Shown here: one piece after another, positions 1,321 to 14,916 of the stretch
How the letters are laid out: each line of letters opens with the position of its first letter
How positions within the stretch are numbered: the first letter of the stretch is position 1
Origin: a virus
Lineage: Duplodnaviria; Heunggongvirae; Uroviricota; Caudoviricetes; Crassvirales
Reading direction: 5' to 3' (one strand)
DNA: 16,737 nucleotides
IMG/VR virus record: IMGVR_UViG_3300046331_000154
Notes under the pieces: generated by a model
Told to the model about the DNA's origin: nothing
Databases searched by the model: none
Seen by the model: the letters and a program-made list of their open reading frames with translations, nothing else
Made by a program: the position numbers and the translations under genes

Positions 1321-1452
1321 ATGATAAAAACTAATAAAAAAAGAAACAAAAGTGAATTTAGAGAAGTTATAGAATCTGTAAAATATATGACTAAAAATTT
1401 AAACGATATAGAAAACCCACTACCAAAAATTAAAATAAATAAAAATGAATAA
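1321..1452 (+). CDS. Small basic hypothetical protein (43 aa)
   Basis: MIKTNKKRNKSEFREVIESVKYMTKNLNDIENPLPKIKINKNE*. Starts 2 nt after the previous stop and overlaps the next ATG by 8 nt, consistent with translational coupling. Confidence 0.5.
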   Translation: MIKTNKKRNKSEFREVIESVKYMTKNLNDIENPLPKIKINKNE

Positions 1453-1831
1453 AGAAGAATTAGAATATTATTTTGTATATGGTACTTTAAAACGTGGATA
1501 TGGTAATAATAGAATATTACAACAATCATCTACCGCACAATTTATTGAAAAAGGTATTACTTCTCCAGAATTTAATTTATATCACTTAGGTGGATTTCCT
1601 GGAGTTACAGAGAATGGTGACACCGCAGTGCATGGAGAAATATGGTCTGTGCAAGATGTTGAAACAAAACGTCGTTTAGATATGTTAGAGGGATATTACA
1701 AAGAAGCACCTACAGAAGGACTTTATAATAAAAAAATAATTGAAATAAATAATAAACAAGTAAATATTTATTTAATAAATAGATATAATAACGAAAAAAA
1801 CAAAATAAAATCAGGTAAATGGGAACGTTAA
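1445..1831 (+). CDS. Gamma-glutamylcyclotransferase family protein (AIG2/YtfP-like)
   Basis: Signature YFVYGTLKRG, plus LYHLGGFPG, VHGEIW, LDMLEGY and LY motifs of the GGCT-like fold. Confidence 0.92.
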   Translation: MNKEELEYYFVYGTLKRGYGNNRILQQSSTAQFIEKGITSPEFNLYHLGGFPGVTENGDTAVHGEIWSVQDVETKRRLDMLEGYYKEAPTEGLYNKKIIEINNKQVNIYLINRYNNEKNKIKSGKWER

Positions 1832-2808
1832 AATTAAGAGAATTATCATTGATACATAATACAAAAACAAGTTTATCTGGAAGTGCGGGTATTACAGTAT
1901 ACACATATTGTAATTTTAGAGAATTTGAATTTAAAGGACTTGTAAGTAAAACAAATTATGGAAACTATGGTTGTTGTACTTCAACAGCACCAATAAATAA
2001 TACAAACTCACAACAATATGAAAATATGTTTGTAGGTTTAGAAACTAGATTTTTCCCAAGTTCATATAGAAACATGAAATTAGTTACAGAATGGGTTGAT
2101 TTTATGAATAATTTGTTTCCATTTTTTGATATTAAAATTATAACAGATTTTGAACAAAATATTATTGATAAAAACTATTGGGTAGAACAAGGTTTACGAT
2201 TTACTTTTAATAAAGATAAAATTTATTTTGTAATTAAAAAAGATATTACAAGAAATCAATATTTTAATTTATTTCAGTTATCATTATTAAGATACTTTGT
2301 GTCAAATGAATATTATTTTATGATATATGATTGTTTAAGATTAAGAAAATTAAAATCTTTATCTAAATTATCAAATTGGCAAATAATGGATATTGCAAGA
2401 TTTGGTGTGCAAACAAATACTACACAATTTATAAACGTGGGTAATTCATCATATGAATATGCTTTTTTGAGAGATTATAGAAGTCCTATTTTTAACAGAT
2501 TTTATGCAACTAATTTATCTACGGAAACAGAAGTTGTTAAAAAATTAAACGATGGTAATTCACAAAACAATGCCTGTTCAAATCATCATTTGGCTTTAAA
2601 TGTTATTTATTTAATGAAATTATTTCAATTAGGTCATTATATTAAACTATATAAATTAATCAATAATCCAAAATATTTTATTATTGAAAATAAAGAAAAA
2701 CCTAAACAGTTATTGTTTTTTATACAACAAACTTACGGGGGTAATCAACAATTTGATAGAATAAATAACTTACCATTTAATCAAAAAGAATATGAAAAAA
2801 CACTTTAA
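1819..2808 (+). CDS. Hypothetical protein (329 aa) within the amide-ligation cluster
   Basis: Long ORF overlapping both neighbours (13 nt and 17 nt). No family motif recognised. Confidence 0.8.
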   Translation: MGTLKLRELSLIHNTKTSLSGSAGITVYTYCNFREFEFKGLVSKTNYGNYGCCTSTAPINNTNSQQYENMFVGLETRFFPSSYRNMKLVTEWVDFMNNLFPFFDIKIITDFEQNIIDKNYWVEQGLRFTFNKDKIYFVIKKDITRNQYFNLFQLSLLRYFVSNEYYFMIYDCLRLRKLKSLSKLSNWQIMDIARFGVQTNTTQFINVGNSSYEYAFLRDYRSPIFNRFYATNLSTETEVVKKLNDGNSQNNACSNHHLALNVIYLMKLFQLGHYIKLYKLINNPKYFIIENKEKPKQLLFFIQQTYGGNQQFDRINNLPFNQKEYEKTL

Positions 2809-3235
2809 ACTTGAAGAAATAACAATAGGTTCAGATCTTGAAATGTTTATTACTGATCACGATGACAATTTACAATCTGCAATAGGTGTATTTGGTGGTA
2901 CTAAAAAAGAACCAAAATATATTGGAGAACTATGCCATATTCAAGAAGATAATATTCTTGTGGAAGCAAATATTCCACCAGTAGATAATTTTGAAGATTT
3001 TTATAAATATATAAGTTATATTAAATCCTACATTAATGAAAATCATTCAGAATATAAATTAAAATATTCTAGCAGTGAAATAGCACCAATGAATTTATTA
3101 TTTAATGAAAAAGCTAGAGAATTTGGTTGTGAACCTGTATTAATTGTAGATTACGATAACAATAATGATATAATACCAGATAATGATTTTGAAGAAAGTA
3201 TTGAAATTAAACGTCAAAGTAATAAAAGAACGGGT
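2792..3235 (+). CDS. phiEco32-like COOH-NH2 ligase type 2, exon 1 (join 2792..3235,4430..4765; 259 aa)
   Basis: Motifs ITIGSDLEMF, SAIGVFGGTK, IQEDNILVEANIPP and AREFGCEP. Homology ends at KRTG, where the intron P1 helix begins. Confidence 0.85.
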
Positions 3236-3338
3236 GAAGTGCTTGCCCGATAATATATGAAAATATATTATGAGAATTGAACAAAATCGGTGAATGAGAA
3301 GTATAATATAAATAAATTATAAAATAAATTAAATTTTA

Positions 3339-3370
3339 CTTGACTTTTGTATTTTTATTTCGTATCTTTG
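3339..3370 (+). promoter_or_regulatory. Putative intron-internal promoter for the endonuclease
   Basis: TTG (3340-42), 20 nt, then TATCTTTG (3363-70) fits the Bacteroidota -33/-7 consensus (TTG/TAnnTTTG) and lies 21 nt upstream of ATG 3392. The motif can arise by chance in AT-rich DNA, so position is the main support. Confidence 0.6.
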
Positions 3371-3391
3371 GTGTATAAAAACACTTTAAAT

Positions 3392-4225
3392 ATGACAAAT
3401 TTACAAAAAGAAGTAATAAAATTACTTAAACAAGGTTTAATACCTTCAGATGTTGCTAAAAAATTAAATAAAAATAAATCAACTGTACACTCTGTAATTA
3501 AAAGATATCCAGATATTATTGGTAATTATAACAAAACCATGAATACTTGTGATCATAATTATTTTGACAATATAAATACAGAAGAAAAAGCATATTTATT
3601 GGGATTTTTCATTGCTGACGGATATATTTCAACAAATAGTACAAGAATGGGTGTTTTAATTCAATCTAATGATGATGTTGTATTAAAATGTATACAATCT
3701 AGTTTTGCACCTAATAATAAAATTTATACTAAAAATCTTAGTACTAATAAAATTATTAGAAAAACTCAATCTAAAATTAGATGGTGTAGTGTACATATGA
3801 AAAATATTTTAATTAATAAATATAAAATATTACCAAATAAAACATATGATTCTACATTTAATTTCCCCTTTGAAACAATACCTAATAATTTAAAACGACA
3901 TTTTATAAGAGGTTTTATTGATGGTGATGGAAGTTTTGAATCACATAATGGTATTTTTACAATGACATTAGTTGGAACATCTCAAATATTTATGCAACAA
4001 TTTGGTGAACAAATATTATTATTAGATAATGATATGAAATTAAATATTAAAGAAGTACAAGGTAAAACAATTAATTGGTTTACGTTAAGATTTAATATGT
4101 TTGGACGAAATAAACCTGAAAAAGTAATGAAAATTTATAATTATTTATATCAAGATTCAACAATTTTTTTACAAAGAAAAAAAGATAAAATTGAATCTTA
4201 TCTTAAATACCGAGGTAAATTATAA
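3392..4225 (+). CDS. Intron-encoded LAGLIDADG homing endonuclease with N-terminal HTH (277 aa)
   Basis: Two LAGLIDADG-like helices (AYLLGFFIADG, HFIRGFIDGDG) and an N-terminal HTH-like segment (PSDVAKKLNKNKSTVHSVIKR). ATG 3392 is preferred over the track's TTG at 3347, which lies inside the promoter. Confidence 0.9.
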   Translation: MTNLQKEVIKLLKQGLIPSDVAKKLNKNKSTVHSVIKRYPDIIGNYNKTMNTCDHNYFDNINTEEKAYLLGFFIADGYISTNSTRMGVLIQSNDDVVLKCIQSSFAPNNKIYTKNLSTNKIIRKTQSKIRWCSVHMKNILINKYKILPNKTYDSTFNFPFETIPNNLKRHFIRGFIDGDGSFESHNGIFTMTLVGTSQIFMQQFGEQILLLDNDMKLNIKEVQGKTINWFTLRFNMFGRNKPEKVMKIYNYLYQDSTIFLQRKKDKIESYLKYRGKL

Positions 4226-4429
4226 TTTTAAAAGATTATAATCACCGTAACGCATAGGTACTGAAACCAAAACTAAAAGACTTTATAGTCTCTTTTTTTA
4301 TGGAATAAAATGTACCCACGAGTGTTCAACACCTAAACGTAAAGTCGTAGGTGAAAATATATGCTGAACTATAAGAATAACTAGACTTATAGAACTAAAA
4401 GATAAAAAGCTTTTAGGATAACAAAATTG

Positions 4430-4765
4430 GGGTTCCACATTCATATAGGTTATAAAAATCCCACACAAAAAATATCTAGAGAAATTGTAAAATTATTTGA
4501 AAAAAATGTTACTTTACAATTATTAAAAATAGATATTGATGAAAATAATCGTAGAGAATTTTATGGTAAATGTGGAGAATATCGTATAAAACCATATGGT
4601 TTAGAGTGCCGATCTTTAGGTAGTGCTTTATTAAAAGATGAAAACACATTAAAATTAGTTTGGGATGGTGTACAAAAAACTATTACGGAATTTAATAATG
4701 GAGAAAGAGTTTCTACTGAAGAATTTGAGATAATTAAAGATTTAATTAATAATTATAAAAATTAA
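4430..4765 (+). CDS. phiEco32-like COOH-NH2 ligase type 2, exon 2
   Basis: GFHIHIGY and RREFYGKCGEYRIKPYGLECRSL are the C-terminal motifs of the family. The only apparent start, TTG 4427, is the intron 3' end. Confidence 0.85.
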   Translation, partial: GFHIHIGYKNPTQKISREIVKLFEKNVTLQLLKIDIDENNRREFYGKCGEYRIKPYGLECRSLGSALLKDENTLKLVWDGVQKTITEFNNGERVSTEEFEIIKDLINNYKN

Positions 4766-4807
4766 AATAAAAAAAAACAGTTAAAAATAGAAATAAAAGA
4801 AAAATAA

Positions 4808-6565
4808 ATGATACAAATAATAATAATTTTTGCAATTATGCAAATCGGGTTTAACTTATTGTTTAAACCAAAATATAATCAGTTGTGCTGTGGATTATTT
4901 GGAGCAGCAGCGGATGATGTTAGTAAAATAAATATTAACAAATTAAAAATTTTAGGTATTTATAATGATATTAGAGGTGGACATTCTTGTGGAATATCTA
5001 TTGATGGTGACATTATTGTAGGAACTTATAAAAATAAACTATTTAAAGACTTTATTTCAGAATTTGATATTAGTGGACCAGATACATTACCTGTTGTTTT
5101 AGGACATACAAGAATGGCAACTGGTGGTGCACACACTGAAGATAATGCCCATCCTTTTGGATTTGGTACAAATGGAGACTTTTATGATTTTATTGGTACA
5201 CATAACGGTACACTTCATAATGAAGACGATTTAGCTGAAGAATATAATGTAAATACTAAAATTTCTGTATTTAAAAATAATATTATGACAAATCGATTTA
5301 AAATTGATTCTGAAATATTATTAGAAATAATATATGAAAATGGATTTAAAGTATTAGAAAAATATGATGGTGCCGCAGCATTAGCAATGTATAATACTAA
5401 AAAACCACAAATTTTATATTTGTATCACGGTGCTTCACAAAAAACATTACACAGTACGGTGTTAATTGAAGAAAGACCTTTGTTTTATTATCAAGAATCT
5501 GAAAATGTAATTTATTATTCTTCATTAAAAAATTCACTAGAAGCAATTAATGATACAAATGGTGAAATTGGAGAACTTGAACACAATGTTGTTTATGAGA
5601 TTAGAAAAGGTAATTTAAAAACAGCTAAAAAACACATTATTGATAGAGGTAAAGCAAAACAAATTAATTCGAGTTGTTCATATCAGAAACATACACCAAT
5701 AGATTATGATAAAAAAGAATGGTGTTCTAATCTTAGAAAATGGGTAGATAAAGTAATACCTCAAGATAATAAAGTAAAAGAATATGATAATACAAAATTA
5801 TTATCTAATTCTAATAATATTTTAAAGAATCATTTTAATATTACTAAAAAACAAATTAACACTACAAATAAAAATGATGTTTATTATGAAAATTTAAGAT
5901 TTTTTATGGACGATAAATTACTTCACGGTATATATGTAGTAAATAAAGAAAATAAATTAATAAGAGTTTGTGAATTTGAAAGTTTATTTAATACTCTTTA
6001 CGAATTGTTAGATGAAACTACTGATAAATTATATAAAAATCCAGTAAAAGTGTATTTTGTAAATGGTATACAAATGATTTCTATTAATGATTACACACAA
6101 CTACATTCAAATTATACAAAATTTACCACAGAGCAAATTAGCTATTGTTCTGTTTATCCTATAAATACATTAGAAGTTGAAAACTCTCTTTGTTATTTTA
6201 AAGGTAATTTAGCAACTATTACTTTTACACCATTTTTTGGAAAAGATGTTATTAAACTTGTTAATGGTATATGTAGAGAAATTTATAAAAAACCTCAAAA
6301 TTTTAATATTAATAATTTATTTGTAGAAGAAGATATTAAATTAACAAAAAAAATAGAAGATTTAAATTCTTTAACGATGTCTTATGACGAAACTAAAAAT
6401 GATGATAACGTAATGTTGGAATTATATAAAGAAAATATATTAGCAACTGTAGAATATTGTTACGAAGATTTAGATGTTAGTGTTAACGATAATTATGTAC
6501 AAAGTCAATTAAAAAACAAATTTGAAAAAATAAAAGAATTTGTAACAAACCTATTAACAATATAA
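4808..6565 (+). CDS. Class II (Ntn) glutamine amidotransferase-domain protein with N-terminal leader and long C-terminal extension
   Basis: Motifs CGLFG, RGGHSCG, GHTRMAT, AHPF, HNGTL and DSE in the expected order. The start could be 4808 or 4838. Confidence 0.88.
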   Translation: MIQIIIIFAIMQIGFNLLFKPKYNQLCCGLFGAAADDVSKININKLKILGIYNDIRGGHSCGISIDGDIIVGTYKNKLFKDFISEFDISGPDTLPVVLGHTRMATGGAHTEDNAHPFGFGTNGDFYDFIGTHNGTLHNEDDLAEEYNVNTKISVFKNNIMTNRFKIDSEILLEIIYENGFKVLEKYDGAAALAMYNTKKPQILYLYHGASQKTLHSTVLIEERPLFYYQESENVIYYSSLKNSLEAINDTNGEIGELEHNVVYEIRKGNLKTAKKHIIDRGKAKQINSSCSYQKHTPIDYDKKEWCSNLRKWVDKVIPQDNKVKEYDNTKLLSNSNNILKNHFNITKKQINTTNKNDVYYENLRFFMDDKLLHGIYVVNKENKLIRVCEFESLFNTLYELLDETTDKLYKNPVKVYFVNGIQMISINDYTQLHSNYTKFTTEQISYCSVYPINTLEVENSLCYFKGNLATITFTPFFGKDVIKLVNGICREIYKKPQNFNINNLFVEEDIKLTKKIEDLNSLTMSYDETKNDDNVMLELYKENILATVEYCYEDLDVSVNDNYVQSQLKNKFEKIKEFVTNLLTI

Positions 6566-8857: not shown

Positions 8858-9264
8858 AAAAAGAAAAAATTATTATTCCTAAACCACGTAATAATGGTAC
8901 AATGACAGAAAGTGCTTTCTGGAGTTTTATAAGATCTTCAATAAGAAAAGCGAGTATGTATTGGAAACCACTACAACAGTGTAAAATTGATGCTAGAAGA
9001 CCTTATAAAGGTACTAATAATCGTCAAAAGTGGGAATATAATTGTGCAGAATGTAAAAGTTGGTTTATGGAAAAAGAAATTCAAATAGACCATATTATTG
9101 ATGCTGGAAGTTTAAAATCAGGTGATGATTTAAAAGGATTTGTAGAACGATGTTTTGTAGAAGCTGGTGGTTATCAAGTGTTGTGTAAACCTTGTCATCA
9201 AATTAAAACAAATTTAGTTAGAGAAAATAATAAATTACTAAAAGAAAATGAAATTAACAACTAG
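8845..9264 (+). CDS. Phage HNH endonuclease (Zn-binding)
   Basis: CAEC and CKPC Cys pairs flank IQIDHI; C-terminal CHQIKT; N-terminal FIRSSIRK. Confidence 0.85.
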   Translation: MVKIKKEKIIIPKPRNNGTMTESAFWSFIRSSIRKASMYWKPLQQCKIDARRPYKGTNNRQKWEYNCAECKSWFMEKEIQIDHIIDAGSLKSGDDLKGFVERCFVEAGGYQVLCKPCHQIKTNLVRENNKLLKENEINN

Positions 9265-10549
9265 AGAAGATTCTAAAAATTATGCGTGTAGTATAGTTGA
9301 AATTAAAAAAATATTTCCAATTGAAAATGCAGATAACATTGTTAGAACGGTAATTAATGGTAATAATGTTGTAATATCTAAAGATGTTATTGTAGGTTCT
9401 AAAATGTTATATTTTTGTTCTGGAACTAAATTATCAGAAATGTTCTGTTATCATAATAATTTATATGATAAACAAGAAAATAATTTAGATGATACAAAAA
9501 AAGGATTTATTAGTTTTAAACAACGTCGTGTAAAAGCTCTTAAATTAAGAGGGATTATTTCTGATGGTATGTTATTATCTATTCCAAGTTTAAGTTATTT
9601 AAATATACCTTGCACTTTAAAATTAGGAGATGAATTTACAGATATTAATGATGTTAATATTTGTGAAAAGTATATTGTTTATATACCAGTATCTAAAAAT
9701 AACAACAAACAACAAAAATCTGTAAAATTAAGTAGACTTATTGACAATCAATTTTATCTACATGATGATACAGATAATTTACGTAAAAATATACATAAAT
9801 TAAATCCTGACGATATTGTAGGCATTCATTATAAAAAACATGGTACATCTATTGTAATTGGAAACGTTCAAACTAAAAGACAATTATCTTGGATTGAAAA
9901 AATAGCTAAAAAATTAAAAATTAAAATAGATGAAATAAAATATGATATTGTTTATTCATCTAGAAAAGTTATTAAAAATGGTTATTTAAATCCTACACAA
10001 AATGAAGGATATTATGGTGAAGATATTTGGGGAATAGTAGCTAAAGAAGTTGGTCATTTAATTCCTAAAAATTGGACATTATATGGTGAAGTCTTGGGTT
10101 ACACACCTTCAGGAAATGCTATTCAAGGTAAATATGATTATGGTTGTAAAACAGATGAACATAAATTTTATGTTTATAAAATATCGGTTGTAAATACTGA
10201 TGGAAATGTAATTTATCTCACAGATAAACAAATTGGAGAATATTGTGAAAAAACAGGGTTATTATATAACGACACATTTATTCACTATGGTGTTGCTAAA
10301 TGTGTTTATCCAGATTTAAATATTGACAATCACTGGCACGAAAATTTTATTGAAAAATTAGAAAAAGATTTTAATGAAAAAAATTGCTGTATGTGTGTCA
10401 ATAAAGTTCCTGAAGAAGGAATTATTTTAAGAATAGAAAAACTTGAACAATATGAAGCTTATAAACTTAAATCTAAAAGATTTTTATTAATGGAATCTGA
10501 TGAACAAGAAAAAGAAATTAGTAATATAGAAGATAATCAAGATGAGTAA
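9248..10549 (+). CDS. ATP-dependent RNA ligase (Rnl2/DRB0094-like with N-terminal OB-like domain)
   Basis: N-terminal IFPIENADNI and KLRGIISDGML; nucleotidyltransferase motifs KKHGTS, LYGEV, FYVYKI, EEGIILR and YKLKS. Confidence 0.85.
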   Translation: MKLTTREDSKNYACSIVEIKKIFPIENADNIVRTVINGNNVVISKDVIVGSKMLYFCSGTKLSEMFCYHNNLYDKQENNLDDTKKGFISFKQRRVKALKLRGIISDGMLLSIPSLSYLNIPCTLKLGDEFTDINDVNICEKYIVYIPVSKNNNKQQKSVKLSRLIDNQFYLHDDTDNLRKNIHKLNPDDIVGIHYKKHGTSIVIGNVQTKRQLSWIEKIAKKLKIKIDEIKYDIVYSSRKVIKNGYLNPTQNEGYYGEDIWGIVAKEVGHLIPKNWTLYGEVLGYTPSGNAIQGKYDYGCKTDEHKFYVYKISVVNTDGNVIYLTDKQIGEYCEKTGLLYNDTFIHYGVAKCVYPDLNIDNHWHENFIEKLEKDFNEKNCCMCVNKVPEEGIILRIEKLEQYEAYKLKSKRFLLMESDEQEKEISNIEDNQDE

Positions 10550-11462
10550 AAAGTTAATAATTACTGTAGGATGTTCAGGCAGTGGTAAATCTACTTGGAC
10601 ACATCGAGAATGGTTAAAAAATCCAAACAATATTGTTATTGTAAATAGAGATAAAATACGAGAATTATTATTTGGATATACAGAAACTAATGTTAATGAG
10701 TATTATCAAAGAAAAGATTTAAATAAACTTGAAAAACAAGTTACTAAATATGAAGATACTTTAATAAATGAAGGTTTGTGTGAAAATAAAACGGTTATTG
10801 TTGATGCTACACATTTACAAGAAAAATATATTAAACGTTTTGAATATTGGAATGTATTAACAGAAATTATATGGTTTCATATAGAATTAGAACATGTGTT
10901 AATTTTAAATAAACAACGTGTTCGACAAGTTGATGAACAAATAATTAAAAAACAACATTTTCAATTTTTACAAATATATGAAAAATTAAAAAATTATAAA
11001 TTTAGTAAAACACAAATATTTAATGATTTTACAAAACCTAATTGTTGGATATTTGATATTGATGGTACTTTAGCACATGCTAATGGTAGAAATCCTTATA
11101 ATGAAACTAATGTTTTTAATGATTTAGTAGATTATTCTTTAGTAGAAATATTTAGATCATTATCAAGTATAAACATACAAAATATTGAAGAACCTTTATT
11201 TTTTTGCTCAGGACGTTCTGAAAAATGTAGAAAAGATACTGAAAAATGGTTAAATTATCATATTCAAGATATTGTTCCTTACAAATTATTTATGCGTAAA
11301 GAAAATGATAATAGACCAGATTATGTTGTTAAAAAAGAAATGTATGGAGAAATAACTAAAACAAATTATATTGCTGGTATTTTTGATGATAGATTACAAG
11401 TTGTTAGATATGCAAGATCTTTAGGATTAAAAGTATTAAATGTAGAATATAATAATTTTTAA
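10542..11462 (+). CDS. pseT: Polynucleotide 5'-kinase/3'-phosphatase (T4 PseT-like)
   Basis: P-loop GCSGSGKST, NRD and VDAT in the kinase domain; HAD phosphatase motifs DIDGTL, SGR and FDDR. Confidence 0.92.
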   Translation: MSKKLIITVGCSGSGKSTWTHREWLKNPNNIVIVNRDKIRELLFGYTETNVNEYYQRKDLNKLEKQVTKYEDTLINEGLCENKTVIVDATHLQEKYIKRFEYWNVLTEIIWFHIELEHVLILNKQRVRQVDEQIIKKQHFQFLQIYEKLKNYKFSKTQIFNDFTKPNCWIFDIDGTLAHANGRNPYNETNVFNDLVDYSLVEIFRSLSSINIQNIEEPLFFCSGRSEKCRKDTEKWLNYHIQDIVPYKLFMRKENDNRPDYVVKKEMYGEITKTNYIAGIFDDRLQVVRYARSLGLKVLNVEYNNF

Positions 11463-13734: not shown

Positions 13735-14916
13735 ATGACAAATGATATAGGTAAAATATGTAGAAATTTAATGCAAAGACAGACTTTTTATGGTCTTTTT
13801 TTATTAAATTTAAATAAAGAATTTTCAACTAGTTTACCAACTGCTGGTGTAGGATTAAATGGTATAAATCAAATGTTATATATTAATCCTGAATTTTGGG
13901 ATAAATTATCTGATAAACATAAAGAAGGATTGTTAATTCACGAATTATTACATATTTGTTTTTTTCATTTAACAATGAGAAATAGTTTTGTAGATAAAAA
14001 ATTATTTAATATTGCCGCTGATTTAGAAATTAATCAATATATTGACAATGATTATTTACCCGATGGCGCTATTGTAATGACTAGTTTTCCAACATTAACA
14101 TTAGAATTAAAAGCTGGAACTAATTATTATTATCAAAAATTATTAGAAAATAATAATTCTAAAGATCCTGATCCAGGATTACAATCTTTAATGGGTGGTC
14201 AAAGTGGTCCACCTACAGATGGTGATGGTGATTTACATCCTACTTGGAAAGAATTTGAAAATCTCACAGATACTGAAAAAAAATTAATTCAAAATCAAGT
14301 AGAACACATTCTTAAAGAATCTGCAACACAAATTACTAAATCTAGAGGAACTATTCCTGGAGAATTAAAATCTTTAATTGATGAATTATTTAAAATTACA
14401 GAAGAAGTTTTTAATTGGAAAGCTTATTTTAGAAGAAAAATGGGTTGTTCATCAGAAGTATATACAAAAAAATCTCGTAGAAAAATGTCTAAGAGATTTG
14501 AAGATAATGCTGGAATTAAAATTAAACAAAAACATCATATTTTAGTTGCTGTTGACACATCAGGTTCTGTTAGTAATGCAGAACTATTAGAATTTTTTAG
14601 TGAAATACATCATATTTATAAAGCAGGTGCATCAGTTACAATTATAGAATGTGATACTAAAATTAATGATATTTATGAATACAAAGGTAAATTTAAAGGA
14701 AGTGTTGTAGGACGTGGGGGTACAGATTTTACACCACCTGTTGAATATTATAATAAACATAAAAATAAATTTACAACACTTGTGTTTTTCACCGATGGTT
14801 ATGCACCAGTTGAGTGTAAACCACACAAACAAATGATGTGGGTTATATCATCCGCAGGAACAGAAGATCTTGGATTATTTCCAGGTTATAAAATTAAAAT
14901 ACCTAAAATAAATTAA
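13735..14916 (+). CDS. DUF2201-like protein: HExxH metallopeptidase-like N-domain plus vWA domain
   Basis: HELLH followed by NIAADLEINQ; vWA MIDAS-type motifs VDTSGS, GRGGTDF and FTDGY. Confidence 0.88.
   Translation: MTNDIGKICRNLMQRQTFYGLFLLNLNKEFSTSLPTAGVGLNGINQMLYINPEFWDKLSDKHKEGLLIHELLHICFFHLTMRNSFVDKKLFNIAADLEINQYIDNDYLPDGAIVMTSFPTLTLELKAGTNYYYQKLLENNNSKDPDPGLQSLMGGQSGPPTDGDGDLHPTWKEFENLTDTEKKLIQNQVEHILKESATQITKSRGTIPGELKSLIDELFKITEEVFNWKAYFRRKMGCSSEVYTKKSRRKMSKRFEDNAGIKIKQKHHILVAVDTSGSVSNAELLEFFSEIHHIYKAGASVTIIECDTKINDIYEYKGKFKGSVVGRGGTDFTPPVEYYNKHKNKFTTLVFFTDGYAPVECKPHKQMMWVISSAGTEDLGLFPGYKIKIPKIN

Follow-up and report, generated by a model that had tools for sequence, protein, structure and literature searches.

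The DNA analyzed here, called the window throughout, is a stretch of 16,737 nucleotides (nt) from a crAss-like phage (Crassvirales; IMG/VR record IMGVR_UViG_3300046331_000154) that is strongly AT-rich, with a GC content of 23.6%. On its plus strand, three open reading frames (ORFs) are found between an ORF of 329 amino acids (aa) and an amidotransferase gene: 2792-3253 (153 aa), 3347/3392-4225 (292 aa from the first start, 277 aa from the second), and 4427-4765 (112 aa). Protein comparisons confirm that the first and the third of these ORFs are the two halves of one COOH-NH2 ligase gene of the PF14395 family. The insert that separates them (positions 3236-4429) is, in our assessment with high confidence, a mobile group I intron that resembles those of subgroup IA, possesses a P7.1 extension between P7 and the 3' strand of P3 (P3'), and carries the middle ORF in its P5 loop. 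The best annotated relative of the window is the Cellulophaga phage phi14:2, which also belongs to the Crassvirales; a megablast search of the phage collection with the whole window gave no match. The gene order gamma-glutamyl cyclotransferase, ATP-grasp, COOH.NH2 ligase, amidotransferase, amidoligase is common to phi14:2 and the window, and the corresponding Pfam matches in the window are GGACT, GATase_6, and Amidoligase_2.

The Split Ligase Gene and Its Intronless Relatives

In tblastn searches, the ORF at 2792-3253 corresponds to the N-terminal part, and the ORF at 4427-4765 to the C-terminal part, of annotated COOH.NH2 ligases; the two sets of matches fall in the very same records and are in colinear order. 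Exon 1 of the ligase gene (2792-3235; 148 codons, ending in the residues K-R-T-G) and exon 2 (4430-4765; 111 codons plus the stop codon, starting with GFHIHIGY) abut in the protein alignment, with neither a gap nor an overlap between the two halves. At the DNA level, exon 1 ends with AGAACGGGT at position 3235, the insert ends with AAAATTG at position 4429, and exon 2 begins with GGGTTCCACATTCAT. The ORF at 4427-4765 passes the PF14395 profile by itself (E = 4e-7; profile positions 95-166; 30 bits against a cut-off of 25), and the scores of intronless relatives with this profile range from 27 to 42 bits. When 2792-3235 is joined to 4430-4765, a protein of 259 aa results that reads RTG^GFHIH across the joint (the caret marks the junction); it matches the g039 protein of phage phi14:2 with an E value of 5e-58, RTG^GFHIH standing opposite RTS-GFHIH without a gap at the joint. 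An earlier note, made from the letters of this DNA, had interpreted the two ORFs as one split ligase and had predicted this product from the removal of 3236-4429; a check of the joined protein against intronless homologues, with which it is colinear, bears out the first claim and reproduces the second.

A database search retrieved 99 full-length intronless homologues of the joined ligase. The closest of these, P0011, shares 86% of its amino acids with the joined protein (residues 1-258 in both), and the 99.5-kb contig that codes for it (L060) is syntenic with the window. Positions 1427-3234 of the window align to 1636-3443 of L060, and positions 4429-4775 align to 3444-3790; the two DNAs hence differ at the ligase gene by one clean empty site of 1194 nt (window 3234 = L060 3443; window 4429 = L060 3444), which places the boundaries given in the earlier note to the base. 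Four further IMG/VR relatives (L002, L003, L004, and L007) are unbroken at the same point, the match to the N-terminal half running to base 4000 and that to the C-terminal half starting at base 4001, and their DNA reads AGAACAGGT-GGTTTTCAT across the insertion point. Deletion of either 3236-4429 or 3237-4430 would yield the same mRNA, a one-base ambiguity; we chose 3236-4429 because, by the rule for group I introns, the exon ends in U and the intron ends in G. L060 additionally contains an ORF of 86 aa (3777-4037) between the ligase and the amidotransferase genes that has no counterpart in the window (4766-4807).

Predicted Structure of the Intron RNA

The intron of 1194 nt (3236-4429, plus strand) was delineated by the clean indel relative to L060, by blastn, and by a covariance model (CM) termed R1 that is described below. 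Its predicted P1 helix (3231-3237/3243-3249) comprises seven base pairs in which CGGGU(GA) is bound by (UU)GCCCG; the minimum free energy (MFE) fold computed with ViennaRNA has a z-score of -4.2. P1 places the 5' splice site after U3235, which forms a wobble pair with G3245, and the putative guide is GCCCG at 3245-3249; the colinearity of the ligase protein locates this splice site independently of the fold. P2 (3250-3258/3263-3271) is predicted by the same program as a hairpin of nine base pairs with a GAAA tetraloop. The in-frame TAA codon at 3251-3253 that ends the unspliced frame lies within the 5' strand of P2, as the earlier note had stated. Downstream, P3 would be formed across 1 kb by UUGAAC (3277-3282) and GUUCAA (4324-4329), followed by J3/4 (AAAA, 3283-3286) and by P4, which pairs UCGGUG (3287-3292) with UACCGA (4208-4213) and shows compensatory U-A/A-U and G-C/A-U exchanges in homologues. 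The loop of P5 between the two strands of P4 holds the endonuclease ORF.

The 3' part of the intron contains P6 (4214-4216/4244-4246), which is GGU/ACC in the window and GAU/AUC in Bacillus phage PJN02 and which encloses P6a (4219-4228/4233-4242). J6/7 (GUAAC, 4247-4251) leads into P7, a pairing of GCAUA (4252-4256) with UAUGC (4360-4364) that crosses P3 and thereby creates the group I pseudoknot. P7.1 (4257-4261/4312-4316), a hairpin with a variable distal part, is followed by the conserved stretch CACGAGU (4317-4323), the 3' strand of P3, the hairpin P8 (4330-4335/4348-4353), and J8/7 (AAAAUA, 4354-4359). P9 (4369-4375/4386-4392) and P9.1 (4395-4401/4410-4416) complete the set of helices, and the 3' tail GAUAACAAAAUUG (4417-4429) ends with the terminal G (omega G) at 4429. 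A GRUAACAA...G tail is kept in all aligned homologues, where it directly adjoins each 3' exon. The MFE fold of the window by itself (ViennaRNA) contains P6, P6a, P7 together with P7.1, P8, P9, and P9.1, in addition to P1 and P2. The order P7, extra hairpin, P3', P8, P7' is one that we take to be characteristic of subgroup IA; based on this topology and on the architectures of the td intron of phage T4 and the orf142 intron of Staphylococcus phage Twort, we describe the intron of the window as IA-like.

Three other pairings were considered and discarded. CACCUA/UAGGUG as P7 would leave no room for P3' and P8, and this pairing is in fact P8; CGGUGA/UCACCG as P4 is disfavored by the U-A/A-U covariation, which supports UCGGUG/UACCGA; and GGUAC/GUACC, another candidate for P4, corresponds to P7.1.

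Homologous Introns, Covariation, and a Covariance Model

The 204 nt that follow the endonuclease ORF (4226-4429) match 54 phage records in blastn searches, with 70-77% identity over nearly their full length. Six of these matches were examined, and each of them is located inside an interrupted gene. Four reside in tape-measure genes: those of Clostridium phage phiCD211 (74% identity, E = 1e-22), Staphylococcus phage PT1-1, and Streptococcus phage phiJH1301-1 are without an ORF, and that of Staphylococcus phage 6ec carries an HNH endonuclease ORF in the same loop, before the matched core. The other two are found in the helicase gene of Bacillus phage PJN02, where the homologue adjoins a 'mobile intron protein', and in the ATPase gene of crAss phage cr6_1, where it follows an 'intron-encoded endonuclease'. 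An exact 19-mer of the intron core is present in 23 more loci in IMG/VR and in 23 loci in metagenomes.

For the structural comparison, 18 family members (with and without ORF, the ORF loops having been removed) were parsed, and the counts of base pairs additionally include L016, a second ligase-borne copy discussed below, and the 3' half of the cr6_1 intron. Across distinct variants, 349 of the 357 cells of the helices are canonical, and double changes were observed in P3, P4, P6, P7, P7.1, P8, P9, and P9.1, every counted helix showing at least one. The long-range helix P3 is canonical in 60/60 cells from ten distinct variants, with double changes in five of its six pairs, and this value drops to 23-35/60 when the partner strand is slid. 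P7.1 (35/35 cells, seven variants, double changes in four of five pairs), P8 (46/48 cells, eight variants), P9 (70/70), and P9.1 (77/82) behave similarly, with many double changes in the latter two. Those helices that were located without any constraint from a search pattern pair at 94-100% in register, as compared with about 25-60% after a shift of the partner by one to three bases.

RNAalifold, applied to a MAFFT alignment of 16 homologues from which the window was excluded and given none of the pairings proposed above, predicts the same P6, P6a, P7 plus P7.1, P8, P9, and P9.1, with compensatory changes in 27 of 40 pairs. From this alignment the covariance model R1 was built; it detects the window at 4208-4428 with 166.7 bits (E = 5.9e-37) over the full length of the model and without any non-canonical pair being flagged, and it recognizes the cr6_1 homologue with 155.5 bits. 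There is no other R1 match in the window, nor is there one in the intronless L060 and L002. The claim of the earlier note that all core pairings from P1 to P9 can be read out is therefore strengthened by covariation and by a model that was built independently of the window; its assignments of U3235 paired to G3245 and of the terminal G4429 are likewise seen in the sequence and in the P1 fold.

Elements at the 5' end recur among the homologues as well. Of the 18 homologues that were parsed, 17 have a GNRA-capped P2 with a differing stem; for L035 the scan gave a trivial hit, and a GAAA hairpin of seven base pairs was read by eye. The bases just before P2 pair with the respective exon end, again as read by eye; among such pairs are GUGGU/GCCGU in L029 (in a Walker A motif, G^KS), GCGAU/GUCGC in phiJH1301-1, and, in phiCD211, AUGCU/GGCGU. 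The bases that precede the guide are complementary to the first bases of the 3' exon (read by eye).

Some of the loci that carry family members have features of their own. The introns of L029/L050/L054, L033, L034, L038, and L040/L053 are situated in genes for P-loop NTPases between the glycine and the lysine of the Walker A motif (GxG^K[ST]), and most of the 5' exons end in GGU, matching a guide that contains GCC. In phiCD211 (L008, 2425-2985), the tape-measure gene holds two introns in tandem, with a mini-exon of some 25-30 nt between them; it is the first, which has no ORF, that is homologous to the window intron, and only the second, an unrelated intron (2721-2985; 41.7 bits with Rfam), is annotated as Intron_gpI and visible to Rfam. 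The tape-measure region of PT1-1 (L036) contains at least three introns: the family member at about 2400-2680 and, downstream of it (3788-4397), two more group I introns detectable by Rfam (41.5 and 51.4 bits).

The Endonuclease ORF in the P5 Loop

The ORF in the P5 loop (3392-4225; 277 aa) is predicted to encode a LAGLIDADG homing endonuclease (Pfam LAGLIDADG_3, 3e-10; HTH_23, 2e-5). An N-terminal HTH_23 domain is followed by two LAGLIDADG_3 stretches with the motifs FFIADGY and FIDGDGS; judged by these motifs, each of which has its terminal acidic residue, the protein is a two-motif enzyme of the monomeric type. Its tblastn matches cover 92-99% of its length with 27-31% identity, carry labels such as 'intron-encoded endonuclease' and 'mobile intron protein', and stem from Bacillus, Lysinibacillus, Staphylococcus, and crAss-like phages; when the endonuclease was used as the query for related loci in IMG/VR, no relative was found. 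The last six codons of the ORF (Y-R-G-K-L-stop) double as the 3' strand of P4, P6, and the start of P6a. Since the corresponding loop contains an HNH gene in 6ec and is empty in phiCD211, the ribozyme scaffold and the endonucleases that it carries are separable modules.

An AT-rich leader of 99 nt (3293-3391) precedes the ATG codon of the endonuclease ORF and contains the sequence TATCTTTG (3363-3370) 22 nt upstream of this start. TATCTTTG fits the -7 promoter consensus of Bacteroidota, TAnnTTTG, and may serve as the endonuclease's own promoter within the intron.

Proposed Splicing and Homing and the Weighing of Alternatives

In the mechanism that we propose, the ligase gene would be transcribed through the intron, the guide GCCCG would pair with the exon end CGGGU, and an external guanosine would attack after U3235. 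The freed exon 1 would then attack after G4429, the position being set by P10, and the joined mRNA, with the junction AGAACGGGT^GGGTTCCAC, would encode the 259-aa ligase; without splicing, translation would halt at UAA 3251. The endonuclease presumably cuts intronless ligase alleles of co-infecting phages, whose repair would then copy the intron in. That the RNA of the window is catalytic, that its endonuclease is active, and that the element can home is what we infer from its sequence. The suggestion of the earlier note that splicing gates the amide-ligation pathway was not upheld, as it would be true of any intron and nothing specific to this one was seen.

Several points weigh against this reading. 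The Rfam group I intron model RF00028 has no match in the window at the gathering threshold and none in 3150-4500 or in 4200-4450 at E ≤ 10, and the Rfam scans at this relaxed threshold returned only chance matches to small RNAs (sRNAs) and small nucleolar RNAs (snoRNAs). P7, the helix that would contain the guanosine-binding site, shows a single compensatory change (GCAUA/UAUGC to GCGUA/UACGC in cr6_1) and is otherwise invariant; its first two pairs, adjoining J6/7, are G-C and C-G. P4, P6, and P7 were located by patterns that partly fix their sequence, P6 and P7 being recovered later by unconstrained procedures. In addition, P10 in the window, formed by GGGU (4430-4433) and GCUU (3241-3244), is weak, with three G·U pairs among its four; P10-like pairs at the same place, read by eye and without statistics, are GAAA/UUUU in phiCD211, AAAC/GUUU in L010, and AGAAG/CUUUU in phiJH1301-1. 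The possibility that the missing Rfam match signifies a missing intron was rejected. RF00028 also misses the homologous introns of phiCD211, 6ec, PT1-1, phiJH1301-1, PJN02, and cr6_1, yet it detects unrelated introns within a few hundred bases of them (phiCD211, PT1-1); because the model overlooks a whole intron family while finding its neighbors, its negative result is uninformative. By this comparison of sequences, the Rfam negative reflects a limit of the model, not a lack of an intron, and a search with this group I covariance model, one of the checks recommended in the earlier note, did not work as a check here.

Three other explanations for the interrupted ligase gene need to be considered. 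The insert could be an endonuclease cassette devoid of a ribozyme, with the halves of the ligase being translated separately and assembling into an active enzyme; such an arrangement would find some footing in a possible TTG start codon of the 3' half at 4427 with an AGGA nine bases upstream, and in the fact that the 5' half stops only eighteen bases past the break. Against it stand the non-ORF parts of the insert on both sides of the endonuclease gene, roughly 360 nt in all, which have a conserved and covarying group I topology, the homologous ORF-less inserts that split tape-measure genes, the boundaries, which obey the U·G and terminal-G rules exactly, and the location of the break in the middle of a beta strand that carries the invariant HxH motif; we therefore judge this explanation to be very improbable. 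Somewhat less improbable, but still a marginal option in our view, is an intron of group I origin that has lost the ability to splice and has turned the ligase of the window phage into a pseudogene. The weak P10 would be in keeping with such a decay, as would the state of L016, which has lost its endonuclease and has HxA in place of the nearly invariant HxH, so that decay may be under way in one or more of the ligases that carry the intron. HxA is, however, also found in a ligase without an intron (P0076), and the helices of the window are all intact, the CM alignment flagging no pair as non-canonical. The exons are both open; their joined product, 86% identical to its closest intronless homologue, retains HxH and aligns without a gap; and the endonuclease ORF is of full length and has both LAGLIDADG motifs.

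LAGLIDADG domains occur in inteins as well, and an intervening element of a different kind, either an intein or a group II intron, has to be weighed for this reason. In-frame stop codons from position 3251 onward and the lack of a Hint domain in the insert speak against an intein. A group II intron is contradicted by the lack of a reverse transcriptase and by the fact that no Rfam family, the group II models included, reaches its gathering score in the window. Of all the explanations, an element of this kind, which the sequence rules out, is the one to which we give the least credence, and a mobile IA-like group I intron continues to be the explanation that we favor.

Insertion Site and Predicted Fold of the Ligase

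The intron lies between the codons for Gly148 and Gly149, two codons upstream of the first histidine of the HxH motif, and thus where the earlier note had put it, directly before this motif. In an alignment of 55 homologues, D14, E16, D53, E58, H151, H153, E207, and R209 (L002 numbering) are invariant; a pattern count over the 99 intronless homologues finds HxH in 93 of them and HxA in one, with five falling outside the pattern as written. The AlphaFold model of the intronless L002 protein, which is 59-79% identical to the ligase of the window, has a pLDDT of 93.5 and places GFHIHFG in a beta strand. When this model was compared with known structures by Foldseek, matches to YbdK (1R8G; TM-score 0.61), to glutamate-cysteine ligases, and to glutamine synthetases were obtained; a sequence search of the PDB with the ligase profile gave chance matches only. 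Based on its profile match and on the L002 model, the ligase of the window is assigned to the PF14395 phiEco32-like amidoligases, with a predicted fold resembling that of glutamine synthetase and YbdK. In the glutamine synthetase of Salmonella, the H-x-H motif (H269/H271) provides a metal ligand and a nucleotide contact, and it appears reasonable by analogy to regard HxH as an active-site motif of the phage ligase.

The ligase belongs to a conserved module composed of GGACT, a gene in the ATP-grasp position, the ligase, the amidotransferase, and the amidoligase. Downstream of this amidoligase module, the window encodes an RNA ligase (PHA02142 OB fold plus RNA_ligase) next to a polynucleotide kinase-phosphatase (9248-11462), a pair of RNA repair enzymes.

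Other Ligase-Borne Copies and the Probable Spread of the Intron

Two further copies of the intron were found in ligase genes. L016, a 55-kb IMG/VR contig that is syntenic with the window at 64-68% nucleotide identity, carries the same intron with 78% nucleotide identity (reverse strand; ligase locus at about 4871-6100, intron at about 5294-5731, oriented), although its ligase is only 36-38% identical to that of the window. Of the endonuclease of L016, only the last 34 codons remain (91% identical); that the insert has outlived its ORF is as expected of a spliced intron. Its exons read RCAG^GHVAIGY, which places the insertion one codon downstream of RTG^GFHIH in the R-x-x-G-x-H-x-H motif of fixed length, and in the nucleotide sequence the two sites both read GGU^GGG. 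The ligase of L016 has alanine in place of the second histidine (HxA), a change that also occurs in the intronless homologue P0076. The third copy resides on the reverse strand of L043, a metagenome contig of 1 kb, at 772-993 (83% nucleotide identity, 152.8 bits with R1), and it is directly followed by GHIHIGF; the contig is too short to include exon 1. A weak second CM match (16.8 bits) is seen in L043 at 408-598, and two tRNA genes, each with a long variable region (41.3 and 38.6 bits), lie on the minus strand of L016 at 14447-14698.

These introns are 78-83% alike at the nucleotide level, whereas their host ligases share only about 36% of their amino acids, and nearly all ligase homologues are intronless. 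This discrepancy points to a recent lateral spread of the ligase introns and not to an ancient residence, and it does not support the idea of long-term homing at this site that had been voiced in the earlier note. A more far-reaching and, in our estimation, rather doubtful idea is that the introns constitute an uncatalogued, IA-like lineage invisible to Rfam that circulates between phages of Firmicutes and Bacteroidota and chooses its sites by guide-led reverse splicing at glycine codons ending an exon in GGU^, and not through endonuclease homing alone; the sites concerned would be G^K[ST] in Walker A motifs and G^G(x)HxH in ligases. If true, reverse splicing would explain why the copies of the window and of L016 stand one codon apart and are nevertheless both found at GGU^GGG.

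Homing endonucleases persist by targeting sequences that are unable to drift. That an intron occupies the HxH strand in no fewer than three divergent ligase genes therefore speaks, indirectly, for a strong constraint on the amidoligase of crAss-like phages. In genome annotation, the two 'hypothetical' ORFs and the endonuclease should be labeled as a single spliced ligase gene and its intron, and since pipelines that rely on Rfam miss this phage intron family, the same re-annotation applies to the family as a whole.

Comparison with Known Systems

Firmicutes phages and prophages are known to harbor group I introns of subgroups IA1 and IA2 in their tape-measure genes (Tourasse and Kolsto 2008, PMC2504315). 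The tape-measure introns of phiCD211, 6ec/PT1-1, and phiJH1301-1 share 70-77% nucleotide identity with the window intron over the core of about 200 nt, the same helices from P2 to P9.1, J6/7-P7 (GUAAC-GCAUA), the CACGAGU stretch, J8/7-P7', and the GAUAACAA tail, and any ORF that they possess is located in the P5 loop; they differ in their host gene, in the phylum of their bacterial hosts, and in their ORF, which is of the HNH type in 6ec and absent from phiCD211, PT1-1, and phiJH1301-1. This likeness to the class described by Tourasse and Kolsto concerns the homologues found here. One ribozyme scaffold that carries in the same loop a LAGLIDADG gene, an HNH gene, or none, across phages of different bacterial phyla, represents a clean case of its kind, while the understanding of how group I introns work is left unchanged by the window intron.

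The td intron of phage T4 and the orf142 intron of phage Twort are phage-borne members of subgroup IA2 with a peripheral element between P7 and P3'. Introns of this type are positioned at conserved catalytic motifs, often together with a homing endonuclease, and have two hairpins, P7.1 and P7.2; the ORF of td lies in P6a. The window intron, by contrast, would have one compound hairpin plus the single-stranded CACGAGU stretch, with its ORF in P5. A different arrangement is represented by the nrdA gene of Aeromonas phage Aeh1, which is split by mobE: an endonuclease gene separates the halves of an enzyme gene without any ribozyme, and NrdA is made as two polypeptides. The position of a homing endonuclease gene between two halves of an enzyme gene is common to Aeh1 and the window, but the ORF of the window is flanked by a conserved ribozyme-like structure whose boundaries follow the group I rules.

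A literature search found no paper that mentions an intron in a COOH-NH2 ligase gene or names this gene as a host, in agreement with the view of the earlier note that it is an unusual one. Group I introns with LAGLIDADG genes have been described in crAss-like phages, where they were found through protein domains in the genes for MCP, PolB, primase, ATP_43b, and TerL (Yutin et al. 2021, PMC7886860); the word 'ligase' is absent from the text of that paper. The introns reported by Yutin et al., for instance that of the cr6_1 ATPase gene, belong to the same virus order, the same kind of element, and the same endonuclease family as the intron of the window, and the cr6_1 core falls into the same RNA family, its endonuclease being 29% identical. 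Unlike in these cases, the host gene in the window is a COOH-NH2 ligase, and the structure of the RNA itself is resolved. The kind of element, a group I intron with a LAGLIDADG gene in a crAss-like phage, was hence already known; what is new is the host gene and an intron family that is missed by Rfam.

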